DNA from: Clostridium sp.
Lineage (GTDB): Bacteria; Bacillota; Clostridia; Clostridiales; Clostridiaceae
Reading direction: 5' to 3'
NCBI GenBank assembly: GCA_022785265.1
Contig: JALFQD010000403.1
Location: 1-52,896, forward strand
Length of the DNA: 52,896 nucleotides
A program made the translations under genes and the position numbers. The notes under the pieces are model-generated. The model searched no databases and was not told the origin of the DNA. It worked only from the letters and a program-made list of their open reading frames with translations. This document shows, in pieces, positions 1 through 52,896 of the stretch (within the stretch, counting starts at the first letter, position 1; each line of letters starts with the position of its first letter).

Positions 1-1648
1 TTTGAAGAGTTTCAGCTAAACCAATCTATCCTATAGCTAATGTACCATGCTTAAGGGCACTTCTAATTCCTTCTTCTGGAATATAACCTGCCATTAAATT
101 ATTTTCATACATAAACTTTGCAGATTTCGGATCTTGTGAGCAAATCCATTCAAAACGTTCCATTAATTGGATTCTTGCTTCATTAATTTTTTGATCAAGA
201 CTATAAAGAAATCTATCAATCAAAATAGAATTATCATCAAAAGAATGATGACCTTTTACATCTTTTTCAAAATTAATTTTACATTCCATAGCAATAGTTG
301 GAAGAATGATAGTTACTGGGCAAATATTACCACGGCCATCTTTTAGCTGACCGAAACCGTTAATATCGTATCCATTGGCTGTTCTGCATCCCATCGTAGA
401 GAAGTAGGTACGAGGGTCGTTGATGTCATATCCTGCGTTTCCAGACCAGTCGACATTAGCATAATTTGGGTACAATCTTGTGGCGGTTGAACGTAATGCG
501 AGTTTAAATAAATCGTAATTTGGGTCACCTGGTTCACGGTTAACTCCTTTCATACATTGGAAAATTCCGCAAGGGAAAATAGATGTTTTATGTAATTTAC
601 CAAGACCTTCAATAGAAACATCTAATAATGCTTTAGTTACCATTCTACCTTCTGGTAAGGTGCAAGTGCCATAATTAATACTCGTAAATGGTAATTGGTT
701 ACCGCTACGAGACTGTAAAGTATTAAGATTATGGTAAAGGCCTTCCGCGGCTTGATGAGTTTCACGAATAGTCATTTTCATAGCATATTTATATGCCTTC
801 GGAAATGATTTATAAAAATCATCTTCAATAGAAGTTTCTTTACTATAACAACCATCATATTTACTCATATCTAATCCTTCATATAAAAATTCAATACCAT
901 CATTGAAATGTTTAAAGAAAGATTTTCTTACATAAGGAACCATAGTCCAATCTAAGTGAGTAGCACTAACTCCACCAAACTAACAAAGACTTTGGATTTG
1001 AAAAATAACAGCAATTAATTGAAATGCTGTATTAATTGAGCCTGCTGGACGAACATCTGCTTGACGAGTATTAAATCCATTGGCAAGCAAATCATCAAAG
1101 GGAACACTTAAACAATTGTGAGAACCAACATAATAAGAATCAAGATCATGAGTATAAATAATATTATCAATATGATTCTTACGAGCCATAGGTGAAAGTA
1201 AATAATCAAGCGCAAGCTGTTTGGTAACAACACTACTTGCTTCACCAGTGCGACCGCCGAATGAATGTTCATCAACATTAGCATTTTGATTTTTTACATT
1301 ATTACCATCGAGCTTTTCACGAATTGCTTTAATAAAATCATCTTTTTTATTACGAGCGACTTCTTTCTTATATCTATATCTGATATAAGCACGAGCAACA
1401 TCGCGTCGTTCAGAACGCATTAAATAATCTTCAATCCAATCTTGAAGATCTTCTACTCCAACGCTTCCATCAGGGAAATGATTTATTTGTCTTTCAATGT
1501 CTTCTGCTATATCTTTTGCAGTATCATCTTCATATAATTTACCATCAACTTCAATAAATGCTTTATTTATTGCGTTAATAATTTTCTTTTTATTAAATTG
1601 AGTTATACTTCCATCACGTTTAATAATATACAATTTTTTTGCCTCCAA
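1..1648 (-). CDS. nrdD: Anaerobic ribonucleoside-triphosphate reductase, class III (NrdD). The 5' end is in the window; the 3' end runs off the window start. It contains in-frame TAG codons at 980-982 and 26-28.
   Basis: ORF 980..1648 starts with a TTG start codon and an ATP-cone motif (KRDGSITQFNKKKIINAI). ORF 26..943 is in the same frame and separated only by TAG (…QSLC-TAG-FGGVSATHLDWTMVPY…). The frame stays open across the second TAG at 26-28 to the window edge. No glycyl-radical C-terminus is seen, so the gene continues beyond position 1. Confidence 0.75.
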
Positions 1649-1659
1649 ACTAAATATAG

Positions 1660-1697
1660 TAGTTCTTTTAGAATATTCTACTATATTTAGGTTTTGT
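1660..1697 (-). other. 11-bp hairpin between the kinase stop and the nrdD start; possible attenuator or processing site
   Basis: AAATATAGTAG…CTACTATATTT inverted repeat with no clear U-tract. GGAGG plus the TTG start of nrdD follow directly. Confidence 0.3.
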
Positions 1698-1707
1698 TAG
1701 TAAATAA

Positions 1708-2313
1708 TTATTTATCTTGGTCCATTTCCGCCCATTGTCTAACTTTTTGAGTTAAAAGATTAACGATATTATTATAATCTTCTAATGTTTCATTTGTTAT
1801 AATATTGCATTTAATATTATCCATTAGTTGAAATTGAATTTCATCAGTGGTATATCTTCTAATTATTTCATCTACATCAGGATTTTCTTCTCTATTTAAT
1901 TGCCTAATTAAGCGTGTTTTCCCTTTGGCGGTGATATAATATATCTCCAATTCAATTCTATCATCTTTAAGAAGACTTATAATTCCTTCAGGATTAAAAA
2001 CACCAATATTAACTTTACTATCAGACAAACTGTCAATACTTGTGCCATAATACCAATTATTGAAACAAGTAGTTTCTAACATTTTATTTTCATCAATTAA
2101 AGTTAAAAATTGATCATTTGAAACAAAATGATAATTTTTATCTGCTACTTCTTTTTCACGCTTTGGGCGCGTAGTATGGCTTATAATAGGATTTAAATAT
2201 TCTTCTAAACGGGAAAAGGTAGCCATCATTAGGCTATCTTTTCCTGCGCCAGATTTTCCACATAATGCAATAATTTTATACATCTTCTTCAATTCCTCCT
2301 TGATAACGGGCAT
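1708..2313 (-). CDS. Guanylate-kinase-like nucleoside monophosphate kinase
   Basis: P-loop GKSGAGKDS followed by TTRPKREKEV…YHFVS, which is a guanylate-kinase-type signature. Stop is TAA. Overlaps the 3' end of the polymerase gene. Confidence 0.6.
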   Translation of the reverse strand: MPVIKEELKKMYKIIALCGKSGAGKDSLMMATFSRLEEYLNPIISHTTRPKREKEVADKNYHFVSNDQFLTLIDENKMLETTCFNNWYYGTSIDSLSDSKVNIGVFNPEGIISLLKDDRIELEIYYITAKGKTRLIRQLNREENPDVDEIIRRYTTDEIQFQLMDNIKCNIITNETLEDYNNIVNLLTQKVRQWAEMDQDK

Positions 2314-50540: not shown

Positions 50541-50577
50541 ATAAAAATTTTAATGGGTTAAATTTTATTTAACCCAT
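50541..50577 (-). terminator. Rho-independent terminator after the methyltransferase gene
   Basis: Hairpin ATGGGTTAA/TTAACCCAT followed by a U-tract. Confidence 0.6.
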
Positions 50578-50581
50578 TATT

Positions 50582-52063
50582 TTATTCATCGTCTTCATCT
50601 TCAGTAACATTAGGATTAACACAACTATTTGCATGAACTCTTAAAAGAGTGCCAGGAGTTACACCAATTTGATGCAATAGAAGTTCATTTAACGTCTTAT
50701 GATAATCCATAGGGAATTTAATATTTTCTTGATAAACGCCAGCGTTCTTTTTTCGGACAATAAATTGTTCTTCTTCGGAAATCATCTTATCACAAAATTC
50801 TTTCAAATTATTAGTCACTTCACCAAAAATAGGCATAGCCTTAAGTAAAGTTACAGGATAAGTTACACCGCCATTACACATTCTATGCCAATAGTAACAT
50901 AAAGAGGAATTAATGAAAGCATAACCAAGATAAAAACTATTTTCATCTTTGAAATATATAGTTAGTTTACCAGTTCGAGAAAGAGTTCTTTTTGCACCAG
51001 TTGTAAAATAACGGCAAGTGTTAGGAACATCCATTTTATACTCGGTAGGAGAAGCACTTAATAGGTTGTTTAAAGTTTTTTCCTGTGAGAGCCATTTTTC
51101 AACAATCTCTTCAGTACCTTTTTCAATTCTATATAAAACTTCACCATTATTATTTTGGAAGTTATTAGGTAATAAACTATTTAAAAACTCATTATCAAGA
51201 ACAATTTTTCTATCATCAGATCTAAATCTAATAAAAGGTGCGACTCTAAAACCATTTTTATTTGGATCAATAATTGTAATTGCAGCGCGAGTAGAATTTA
51301 CTTCATTAGAATTAAAAATTCCAAATTTCTTACCTTTAAAAATATTTGCAGGAACATTATCAAAAGCAAAAATACTACCGCCGCAATTATTTAACTCTTC
51401 TCGCAAGACTTTAAAAGTACTGCCACCAAGGAAACTATGAGGAGTAATAATAACCCCTGGAACCTATTCGACAATTATTTTTTCCATAAAAGCGACATAT
51501 AATTCTTTTGTAGTTTTTGCACAAGAATAAGATCCACTGGCGAGAGAATCTTGACGTCCATAGGGAGGATTAGAAATAACTTTAGCATTGTCAGGAAAAT
51601 GAATTTCATTATTTAAGCAATCTTCATTTACAATATTTACATTGTTTGCACTATCGCCATAACGATATTTCAAAATCGCATGACAAATTTTAATTGCTGT
51701 AGGATCAATATCATAAAGATAAATATTGCCATTAGCTAGTGCAGATTTTGCTGCATTTTCGCCCATAACATCAAGAACGGATAAAATTAAATTACCAGTA
51801 CCACAACATAAATCGCAGATATTATCACCGGGAAGTTCAAGTAAATATTTCGCCATTACTTCAGCAACATCAATAGGAGTATAATACTTACCCATAGCTT
51901 TTTTTTCAATTTTATTAGCAAAAGCCAAGCCATCTTCGTAAAGACCGCCAAGTTTATCCTCAGTAAAAAATTCATTGGGAAAATGAGAGTTCAGAATTAA
52001 ATCCCAAGTATCAGTTAGTCCAATATTAGTAATAGACTGATGATATTCATTTAATGAAATCAT
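50582..52063 (-). CDS. Gamma-class N6-adenine DNA methyltransferase with a C-terminal target-recognition domain. Track ORFs 51464..52063 and 50582..51406 are joined across TAG at 51464-51466.
   Basis: Motif X (KYYTP), motif I (DLCCGTGNL) and motif IV (NPPY). The 19-codon linker is in frame with no TAA or TGA. The downstream ORF 'start' is an internal TTG with no ribosome-binding site. Confidence 0.7.
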
Positions 52064-52066
52064 TAT

Positions 52067-52896
52067 TTAATCCTCCTTAAAAATTTTCTTAATTTCATTA
52101 TAAGATTTCTTAATAGCCATATGAACAGAGATATTAGGATTCAACTGCAAAATTCCGCTTTTAAGAATTGTACACTCGCCATTATCGTCAAATGTCACTT
52201 TATTCTTTTCTACTTTAAAGCCAGGAATAAAATTATATTTACTAGAGATTCCACCATTTCTACCCTTACAATCGAGAGAAGGAAACACCTCAATTTTCAT
52301 ACGATATGCATCAGCAGTCTCTTCGATAAAATATTCAGAATTCAAAATAGCATTTTTCATATACTGCTTAGTAAAAGGTTTAACTGTATTCTTACCTGCA
52401 GCACGGATTTCAGATCCATGAAAAGAAAAGATAGAACTAATAGCATTAAAATTATTCATAGGAATAGTTACTAGCTTATCTTCCTTACAAGTGAAAAGAA
52501 AATCAATATTCTTAAAATAATTGCGAGTAATATTTACACAAATTTCTTTATGTTTAGAAATAGGATAATTATGACCAAACCAATCAAAAGTACAAGTATT
52601 AGCATTGAAATTATCAATAATAGGACGCCAGGCCTCATCCCACTTGGTAGAACGAGAAGAAGAGTACAGATGACCATTTTCATCATATTTTAAATCACAA
52701 TCTCCAGGACGAGCAATCTCATCCTTAACCTCGCCAATATATACATATCCAGATTCTTTCTCTAGAATCTCAATATCAGCAGTATTACCAGTTCCTTTAC
52801 CTGCCTCGCCAGTCAAAGAAATACGATATTTATTGCTCTCAAAAATATTAGGAGCAATATAAGAAGTATTAAAAATTCGACTTAGAGTATCTCCGA
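52067..52896 (-). CDS. Putative restriction endonuclease partner of the methyltransferase. Partial; the 5' end is beyond the window.
   Basis: The ORF is open to the window edge upstream of the track's TTG 'start'. It is translationally coupled to the methyltransferase gene, which starts 4 nt after its TAA. The call is by position only. Confidence 0.35.
   Translation of the reverse strand, partial: GDTLSRIFNTSYIAPNIFESNKYRISLTGEAGKGTGNTADIEILEKESGYVYIGEVKDEIARPGDCDLKYDENGHLYSSSRSTKWDEAWRPIIDNFNANTCTFDWFGHNYPISKHKEICVNITRNYFKNIDFLFTCKEDKLVTIPMNNFNAISSIFSFHGSEIRAAGKNTVKPFTKQYMKNAILNSEYFIEETADAYRMKIEVFPSLDCKGRNGGISSKYNFIPGFKVEKNKVTFDDNGECTILKSGILQLNPNISVHMAIKKSYNEIKKIFKED

Follow-up and report, generated by a model that had tools for sequence, protein, structure and literature searches.

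The window analysed here is the whole 52,896-nucleotide (nt) stretch of contig JALFQD010000403.1 (assembly GCA_022785265.1, deposited as Clostridium sp.), which represents about one quarter of the genome of a tailed human-gut phage, roughly 190-200 kb in size, in which the codon TAG very probably specifies glutamine. For the whole explanation, that of a large gut phage in which TAG is a minor glutamine codon, read by a phage tRNA(CUA) and used unevenly among the genes, we estimate a probability of about 0.85. TAG recoding is already known in gut phages; the present phage is a new example, and the interpretation of a first-pass annotation of this DNA, which had read TAG as a sense codon throughout the element, is supported. 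The G+C content of the window is 31%, and almost all of its genes lie on the minus strand. Approximately 20 IMG/VR contigs are 88-98% identical to it at the DNA level, with lengths of up to 190-201 kb, and one of these contigs looks circularly permuted, which together suggested a genome of ~195 kb. Human-gut assemblies, Hadza samples among them, were the source of the contigs with a near-identical endolysin.

In-frame TAG codons and gene continuity

Reading frames were split at TAA and TGA only, starts were then chosen, and codons were counted per gene. A total of 33 in-frame TAG codons was found, spread over 12 of the ~65 genes in the window. The earlier figure was about 35, and its counts per gene were borne out (two in NrdD, one in the Dda-like helicase, six in the RecJ-like gene, two in the DnaB-like gene, nine in the endolysin, and one each in the methyltransferase and the plus-strand endonuclease). 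Five TAG-bearing genes were additional to that list, namely g6315 (one), g9406 (two), g16043 (two), g19269 (two) and a GIY-YIG protein (four). The TAG-bearing genes are as follows, with residue numbers given after domain and family names.

1-1648, minus strand: NrdD, anaerobic ribonucleotide reductase, 3' end beyond the window; TAG at 980-982 and 26-28; Pfam ATP-cone and NRDD 138-564, unbroken.
6315-6578, minus strand: g6315, 87 aa, an open reading frame (ORF) seen only with TAG as sense; TAG at 6495-6497; AAGGAG before the ATG.
7207-8400, minus strand: Dda/RecD-like superfamily 1 helicase; TAG at 7762-7764, between N-terminal AAA_30 and C-terminal UvrD_C_2.
9406-9867, minus strand: g9406, 153 aa, no assigned function; TAG at 9820-9822 and 9730-9732; CAA in 9 relative loci at each site.
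10824-12572, minus strand: RecJ-like DHH nuclease; TAG at 12363-12365, 12093-12095, 11835-11837, 11565-11567, 10944-10946 and 10875-10877.
14521-16053, minus strand: DnaB-like replicative helicase; TAG at 15985-15987 and 15877-15879, both covered by DnaB N-terminal 13-96; DnaB_C 207-471.
16043-16612, minus strand: g16043, zinc-ribbon protein, phrog_4680; TAG at 16499-16501 and 16064-16066; phrog_4680 4-165 covers the first TAG.
19269-19931, minus strand: g19269, phrog_6721; TAG at 19800-19802 and 19356-19358; phrog_6721 over residues 7-219/220, across both TAGs.
19990-21003, minus strand: transmembrane/coiled-coil and GIY-YIG endonuclease protein; TAG at 20845-20847, 20767-20769, 20725-20727 and 20416-20418.
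29129-30430, minus strand: endolysin, lysozyme, amidase and conserved C-terminal tail; Phage_lysozyme2 3-165, Amidase_2 188-324; nine TAGs at 30272-30274, 30041-30043, 30014-30016, 29993-29995, 29975-29977, 29972-29974, 29528-29530, 29402-29404 and 29339-29341.
37268-37999, plus strand: HNH-type homing endonuclease; TAG at 37721-37723; phrog_559 7-234 unbroken across the TAG; weak DUF2726 match.
50582-52063, minus strand: N6 DNA methyltransferase in a strain-specific island; TAG at 51464-51466, covered by N6_Mtase 35-224.

No TAA or TGA interrupts any of these 12 genes, and their standard-code fragments merge into single ORFs, which agrees with the earlier hand check that only TAG stops occur in the linkers. 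TAA and TGA together occupy ~6.4% of the triplet positions on the coding strand, and TAG accounts for ~14% of the stop triplets there. At this TAA plus TGA rate, the chance of 512 open codons past the first RecJ TAG is ~2e-15, and that of 380 open codons past the first endolysin TAG is ~1e-11. In addition, single Pfam or PHROG stretches cross the TAGs in many of the genes (DHH, Phage_lysozyme2, Amidase_2, NRDD, DnaB N-domain, N6_Mtase, phrog_6721 and phrog_559). In the RecJ-like protein the domains follow one another in the correct order (DHH 72-216, DHHA1 361-456, RecJ_OB 479-577); a seventh TAG of the same frame sits upstream of the ATG. The earlier statement that read-through restores the domain order holds for the DHH protein, the helicase and DnaB, whereas the endolysin is not the amidase plus binding domain that had been described, being a lysozyme followed by an amidase and a conserved tail. 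The support differs among the genes: g6315 is the weakest of the 12 and has no family match, and in the GIY-YIG protein homology lies only downstream of the four TAGs (GIY-YIG domain at 251-331 in Pfam; homing-endonuclease PHROGs at 249-334), so that what speaks for its TAG-holding part is a run of ~200 codons free of TAA and TGA.

Re-calling the genes with TAG as sense raised the best non-overlapping ORF cover from 86.5% under the standard code to 92.3% and brought back full-length domain architectures, as the first-pass annotation had anticipated, whereas TGA as sense gave no gain (86.7%). Total ORF length for each stop read as sense was set aside as a measure, since TGA or TAA as sense also inflates the sum in an AT-rich genome. 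A crude code-15 call gave 56 gene ends at TAA and 17 at TGA, in line with the earlier view of true gene ends, and no gene required TAG as a stop. TAG occurs within 10 codons of a gene end in at most one gene, g16043, at its second TAG site, where relatives have AAG, GAG or GAT. For this same gene, a strong AAAGGAG was observed (window 16600-16625, minus strand) with no ATG, GTG or TTG before the conserved zinc-ribbon motif, the only candidate starts being ATT and ATA. The claim that TAG is a sense codon throughout the element is accordingly correct in that TAG is never needed as a stop, although its sense use is confined to the 12 genes.

The TAG sites are also conserved. Each is kept in 5-19 relatives, apart from one g9406 site that is kept in a single relative, and each TAG of the RecJ-like gene is retained in 15-19 of 22 relatives. 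The same positions recur across independent assemblies from different human samples, including six independent contigs from ENA in which the endolysin has the same nine TAGs and a tenth. Under table 11, RecJ, DnaB, NrdD, the helicase and the endolysin all fall into fragments, and at least one gene goes unseen; the genome must therefore be called with table 15.

The amino acid and the suppressor tRNAs

Comparison with relatives and homologs, which the first-pass annotation had recommended for its suggestion of glutamine, points to this residue. The sites that hold TAG in the window hold TAG or mostly CAA/CAG in relatives, as exemplified by both NrdD sites (CAA or CAG) and the Dda-like helicase site (TAG in 18 relatives, CAA in 5 and CAG in 1). 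Among TAG exchanges at ≥90% identity, CAA or CAG was the partner in 45 of 47 cases. In gene alignments of that identity, the non-TAG partners of window TAGs were CAA (10) and CAG (8) and nothing else, and the window codons facing a TAG of a relative were CAA (18), CAG (9) and GAA (2). As CAA is two substitutions away from TAG, the exchange is explained by synonymy, not by mutational proximity. Homologous proteins gave the same answer: endolysin TAG site 146 is Q in all nine bacterial lysozyme homologs from NCBI and JGI, within the motif P-A/K-D-Q-S, and the first NrdD TAG (site 239) aligns to Q in two solved structures, 9d3x and T4 NrdD, in the PDB alignment.

One candidate line of evidence was discarded. 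P0001, a 94%-identical database protein, shows Q at each of the nine endolysin TAG positions. Its use as evidence would be circular: in its contigs these positions are TAG, and the gene fails to give the query in table 11, the protein being a code-15 call. Recoding in near-identical contigs has already been detected automatically by a public gene-calling pipeline.

In agreement with the first-pass annotation, no suppressor tRNA was found in the window by ARAGORN or by Rfam at gathering and relaxed thresholds, and the sole tRNA is the following.

50328-50404, minus strand: tRNA-Cys(GCA), found by ARAGORN; Rfam 59.3 bits.

In relatives this tRNA-Cys closes a tRNA array located just past the right end of the window. 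The first 10 kb past the window in close relatives contain eight tRNAs, none with a CUA anticodon, whereas more distant relatives (51-67% identity) carry a CUA tRNA within that interval. BLAST of the distant relatives' suppressors against the close relatives gave no match, and a relaxed Rfam scan of the close-relative loci and the window gave no hidden tRNA. A second rightward walk, however, revealed a tRNA(CUA), for which a search outside the window had been advised, in eight of the eight close relatives that cover the site (loci L083-L089 and L091). It is positioned in a Val-CUA-Tyr cluster ~19 kb upstream of tRNA-Cys, ~16.5 kb past the right end of the window. These eight relatives have 89-100% protein identity over the tail-fibre query. 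Their DNA identity to the window is 90-98% for the seven whose polymerase locus was mapped and ~80% for the eighth, an 82%-polymerase relative. Rfam tRNA scores for the relatives' tRNA(CUA) were 52.3, 57.8 and 45.6 bits (threshold, 29).

Two types of suppressor were distinguished. Type A, present in the closest relative (contig 132576), is a class-I tRNA of 73-75 nt with the non-canonical T-loop AUCGACA (L083:773-845), and type B, which most relatives carry, measures 90 nt and has a long variable arm (L084:1273-1362). Strains with either type alike swap TAG with glutamine codons. The two unrelated tRNAs replace one another at exactly the same site, with flanks that are ~98-99% identical (L083 versus L084; also L085-L089 and L091), a swap that is new to us.

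The weak 1:72 pair, G73 and U35 constitute the identity set of the E. coli glutaminyl-tRNA synthetase (GlnRS). In 11 amber suppressors of the phage family, position 1:72 is unpaired in 8 and U1-A72 in 3, and G73 is present in 9; the tRNA-Gln genes that the phages themselves encode show A1-U72 or G1-U72, together with G73. By analogy, the phage suppressors would fit the classical GlnRS identity set. They resemble E. coli supE (glnV) in the CUA anticodon with U35, in G73 and in the weak or absent 1:72 pair, and differ from it in their odd T-loop or long variable arm; nor do they descend from the tRNA-Gln that the phages encode. Many Bacillota lack GlnRS and use glutamyl-tRNA synthetase together with GatCAB. 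In the wider family, amber suppressors of at least five unrelated kinds, and opal suppressors too, occupy the same tRNA array. We tentatively propose, at a confidence nearer to one third than to one half, that the code-change machinery turns over rapidly, that the suppressor site acts as an exchangeable cassette, and that the suppressors have converged on a glutamine-identity signature (unpaired or weak 1:72 plus G73). If true, nature would here have recorded how suppressor tRNAs were recruited several times, independently of one another, to a single amino-acid identity. What we consider the most interesting remainder of the analysis is this apparent turnover of suppressors as cassettes, together with their apparently convergent signature.

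Uneven TAG use and competing explanations

Within the window TAG constitutes 33 of 499 glutamine-type codons (~6.6%), and its distribution is uneven. The endolysin has the highest TAG density (9 of 25 glutamine-type codons, 36%; P=1.9e-5), and the shares in the RecJ-like gene and the GIY-YIG protein are 6/30 and 4/19, respectively. No TAG is present in DnaE, gyrase A, gyrase B, ligase, PhoH, the vault-like protein, or any minus-strand gene of the 32.0-50.4 kb region. The minus-strand block from 32 to 50.4 kb has TAG in 0 of 131 glutamine-type codons versus 31 of 345 in 1-31.8 kb (Fisher P=4e-5). Recoding is enriched in the endolysin and absent from an 18-kb block of minus-strand genes, and the replication genes are variably recoded. 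Locus L001, the DNA directly left of the window, is more heavily recoded, its ORF cover rising from 0.70 to 0.91 with TAG as sense. In addition, k-mer and regular-expression scans identified 11 near-identical sigma-70-like promoters of the form TTGAyTT-N-TATAAT (TTGATTTTTTTATAAAAATAT.TTATAAT), all intergenic, all on the coding strand and each followed by an AAAGGA ribosome-binding site, which split the window into ~11 transcription units. The block and the promoters are located as follows.

32047-50291, minus strand: TAG-free block, readable with the standard code; SPFH/Band-7, many small genes, RNA-ligase-like, major-vault-protein-like and DUF2828/DUF7788 genes.
16640-16668, 19233-19261, 22825-22853, 28564-28592, 35852-35880 and 36932-36960, minus strand: sigma-70-like promoters.
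38692-38720, 42078-42106, 46056-46084, 48677-48705 and 50512-50540, minus strand: the remaining sigma-70-like promoters.

A host-type promoter with the same consensus lies ~250 nt upstream of the suppressor cluster in relatives, so that the cluster is probably transcribed by the host RNA polymerase.

These observations are best explained if TAG is a minor glutamine codon and not a terminator in this phage, its genes ending at TAA or TGA, and if it is read by a phage-encoded amber-suppressor tRNA(CUA) that would lie outside the window in the Val-CUA-Tyr cluster. The suppressor would be expressed from a host-type promoter of the kind that also serves the TAG-free gene blocks. The unmodified host could then translate without delay whatever lacks TAG (the 32-50 kb block, DnaE, gyrase, ligase and PhoH), and the TAG-bearing genes, the endolysin foremost but also RecJ, DnaB, NrdD and the homing endonucleases, may be made at full length only after the suppressor has built up far enough to compete with host release factor 1. 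Recoding would thereby act as a translational delay or a safety catch on lysis, as Borges et al. proposed (bioRxiv 10.1101/2021.08.26.457843), with standard-code-compatible genes and the suppressor coming first and TAG-bearing genes, lysis genes in particular, later. Here too no gene is recoded more heavily than the endolysin, which supports recoding as a guard against premature lysis. For a timing role of this kind we would give slightly less than even odds.

Several points weigh against the explanation as a whole or in part. The tRNA(CUA) is known from relatives only, as the contig of the window ends at 52,896, short of the site. Neither a release-factor gene (GGQ motif) nor an aminoacyl-tRNA-synthetase gene was found in the window and the fetched loci, which cover ~100 of the ~195 kb. 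In 8p23, the closest solved structure, F stands opposite the second NrdD TAG, and the 90-nt length, long variable arm and G73 of type B also recall tRNA-Ser. As for timing, the TAG-bearing genes include replication genes that share operons and promoters with TAG-free genes, so that there is no clean split into early and late genes.

The last two features of sequence and structure, NrdD site and type B tRNA, would also suit a different residue at TAG, whether Ser, Tyr or Leu, delivered by a class-II-type suppressor, or Lys or pyrrolysine; further hints in this direction are the label 'Pyl' that ARAGORN attached to a suppressor tRNA, and K, E and D, which are the next most common TAG partners in distant alignments. 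We regard such a reassignment as improbable, since K, E and D are ordinary substitution neighbors of Q, codons for Ser, Tyr and Leu almost never partner TAG, Q is invariant at endolysin site 146, and, even in strains with type B, 9 of 10 TAGs at ≥90% identity face CAA or CAG in the window. For pyrrolysine in particular, the suppressors have normal D-loops with GG and a variable region that is 4-5 nt or long, which do not fit the architecture of tRNA-Pyl; TAG aligns to Gln codons and not to Lys; and no pyl genes were noticed in the annotated parts, although this search was not exhaustive. An alternative of another kind is that the fragmentation reflects a decaying prophage or a poor assembly, with the TAGs as nonsense mutations or errors and the fragments as pseudogenes. 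Several conserved genes are indeed broken under the standard code, and the window itself has no suppressor tRNA, yet all 33 interruptions are TAG despite its small share of the stop triplets on this strand, with neither TAA, TGA nor frameshifts, and identical positions are found in many independent assemblies, strains and samples. Together with the exchange of TAG for CAA and CAG, the tRNA(CUA) of the relatives, and the lack of any gene that requires TAG as a stop, this makes decay, which the first-pass annotation had named as what would overturn its reading, practically negligible.

Two further explanations accept that TAG is read through and assign it a different significance. The phage could simply match a host that itself uses a TAG-sense code, which would leave no regulatory role for recoding; a metagenome-assembled genome (MAG) that bears the name 'uncultured Mollicutes bacterium' includes a 98%-identical contig, and deviant codes are known from the Mollicutes. 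However, the known deviation of Mollicutes is TGA read as Trp, and TGA ends 17 genes of the window; to our knowledge, no bacterial lineage that reads TAG as Gln has been established. The phage lineage also carries its own tRNA(CUA), 53 of the ~65 genes and a contiguous 18-kb block are free of TAG, and sister lineages are TGA-recoded or standard, which indicates that the code varies with the phage. A recoded host is thus very improbable. Equally slight is the chance that recoding is leaky in a meaningful way, with TAG partly a stop and truncated products, such as a lysozyme fragment or the DnaB N-domain, having functions of their own beside the full-length proteins. Release factor 1 always competes with suppressor tRNAs, no gene related to release factors was seen in the DNA examined, and some fragments roughly match domains; most TAGs, though, fall inside domains and not between them (DHH, lysozyme, NRDD), and the nine TAGs of the endolysin include a TAG-TAG pair, so that most truncated products would be non-functional. 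Leakiness of this sort is compatible with TAG as a suppressor-read glutamine codon as a side effect of it and is not an alternative to it.

Gene content, relatives and known recoded phages

The window contains a module for replication and nucleotide metabolism, comprising NrdD, a DnaE-type polymerase (1329 aa, 39% identity to SPbeta YorL), the Dda/RecD-like helicase, the RecJ-like nuclease, a primase and the DnaB-like helicase. Further genes encode an AAA_24 ATPase, a ligase, gyrase A, gyrase B, RNase H, the lysozyme-amidase endolysin and a PhoH-PIN protein, and these are accompanied by a block of small genes, an SPFH protein, an RNA-ligase-like protein, a major-vault-protein homolog, a DUF2828/DUF7788 protein, the tRNA-Cys and the methyltransferase. 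Megablast of the first 25 kb of the window against deposited phage genomes gave no match, and the nearest polymerase proteins in the phage collection were those of SPbeta-like phages, at 39% identity; the phage is therefore without an annotated close relative in that collection.

The host is probably a low-G+C bacterium with the standard code, and the strong AAAGGAG ribosome-binding sites suggest a host of the Bacillota type and not of the Bacteroidota. A scan of genome contigs yielded no host and matched only the phage contig binned in the 'Mollicutes' MAG. That contig (L097, GenBank CAMELE010000001.1, 163,874 nt, ~98% identical to the window) is contig 1 of the MAG, which is used in a species-representative genome set; its presence there reflects either a binning error or a hint of the host.

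Among distant relatives (~53% polymerase identity), an opal-suppressor tRNA(TCA) was found at L019:12245-12316, L020:12269-12340, L025:22156-22227 and L056:2186-2257. ORF cover is increased by reading TGA as sense in L019, L020, L025, L062 and L063, in part together with a TCA suppressor, and L016 and L065 appear to use the standard code, which indicates that one phage family includes TAG-recoded, TGA-recoded and unrecoded members. Such a family, in which suppressors also swap within one array, is a convenient system for the origin of code changes and is suited to the study of how a suppressor gains glutamine identity. Other RNAs were observed in these arrays. A transfer-messenger RNA gene with the tag peptide ANEYQMAA (L050:2485-2739) is embedded in the array of a distant relative with a CUA suppressor, and a RAGATH-33 RNA (Rfam RF03102, 126.8 bits, above threshold) is located between tRNA-Leu and tRNA-Gly at L029:5161-5289, L083:15093-15221 and L084:19201-19329, in the array that close relatives carry immediately beyond the window.

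Some parts of the window vary among relatives. A 213-aa gene (6562-7203) is missing in L002, L017, L018, L024 and L026, and the region at ~8394-9780 (8.4-9.8 kb) is replaced or absent in many relatives. At the right end, the methyltransferase and the adjoining gene (50582-52896) form an island inserted beside tRNA-Cys, homology with all relatives stopping at ~50,552. The rightmost gene (52067-52894, 275 aa) has no IMG/VR relative. As the island is strain-specific, the rightward walk was begun from the DUF2828 gene. The methyltransferase of this island still holds its one in-frame TAG. A further region differs in composition (G+C 0.41 versus 0.31) and has long antisense ORFs. It encodes a major vault protein (MVP) homolog of 832 aa (46140-48638, minus strand; Pfam MVP_shoulder and Vault_3; rat MVP ~340-796, E=1.7e-17) and, adjoining it, the DUF2828/DUF7788 protein (48756-50291, minus strand), each gene with its own host-type promoter. 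Vault homologs of 39-41% identity are present in the huge phages LR756500, LR756501 and LR756503, and phage MVPs have been reported earlier (bioRxiv 10.1101/2023.11.10.566534).

Code 15 is established in gut phages, as the first-pass annotation had stated, and the present ~195-kb phage, probably of Bacillota, joins those in which TAG is recoded to Gln. In crAss-like phages with code 15, TAG-to-Gln recoding has been proven by metaproteomics (Peters et al., 2022, PMC9523058). Like them, the window phage has TAG as glutamine, TAA and TGA still as stops, and early genes that are compatible with the standard code; its lineage, known here from sequence alone, is unrelated to theirs, with a DnaE/YorL-type polymerase, a ~195-kb genome, 31% G+C and AAAGGAG sites. 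The proposed Phassvirus phAss-1, with a genome of 136 kb and TAG in 41 ORFs (Babkin et al., 2023, PMC10607447), is likewise a human-gut phage with TAG-bearing ORFs and suppressor tRNA genes, although it is not among the significant polymerase relatives of the window phage in the phage collection. Lak megaphages, as far as they are summarised by Borges et al. (bioRxiv 10.1101/2021.08.26.457843), share the reassigned TAG and the suppressor tRNA, which is seen here in relatives, and differ in their ~550-kb genomes, their Prevotella hosts and the release factor 2 that some of them encode, none of which was seen for the window phage.

The phage also resembles Jade, Sapphire and Agate, clades of large gut phages with TAG recoding (Borges et al., bioRxiv 10.1101/2021.08.26.457843), a likeness in size, habitat and code mix, the terminase lying outside the window. 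The genome falls within the range of 150-210 kb, originates from gut metagenomes and has in-frame TAGs and a phage suppressor tRNA (here in relatives). Moreover, lysis genes are preferentially and replication genes variably recoded, and close relatives use TAG, TGA or the standard code. Unlike these clades, no 'code-change module' of release factor and synthetase was seen beside the lysis gene of the window phage in the DNA examined, and the suppressor of its lineage is located in a tRNA cluster ~40 kb from the endolysin. Judged by its sequence, the window phage has the testable features of code-15 phages, namely read-through genes, no TAG stops and a correspondence between TAG and Gln.

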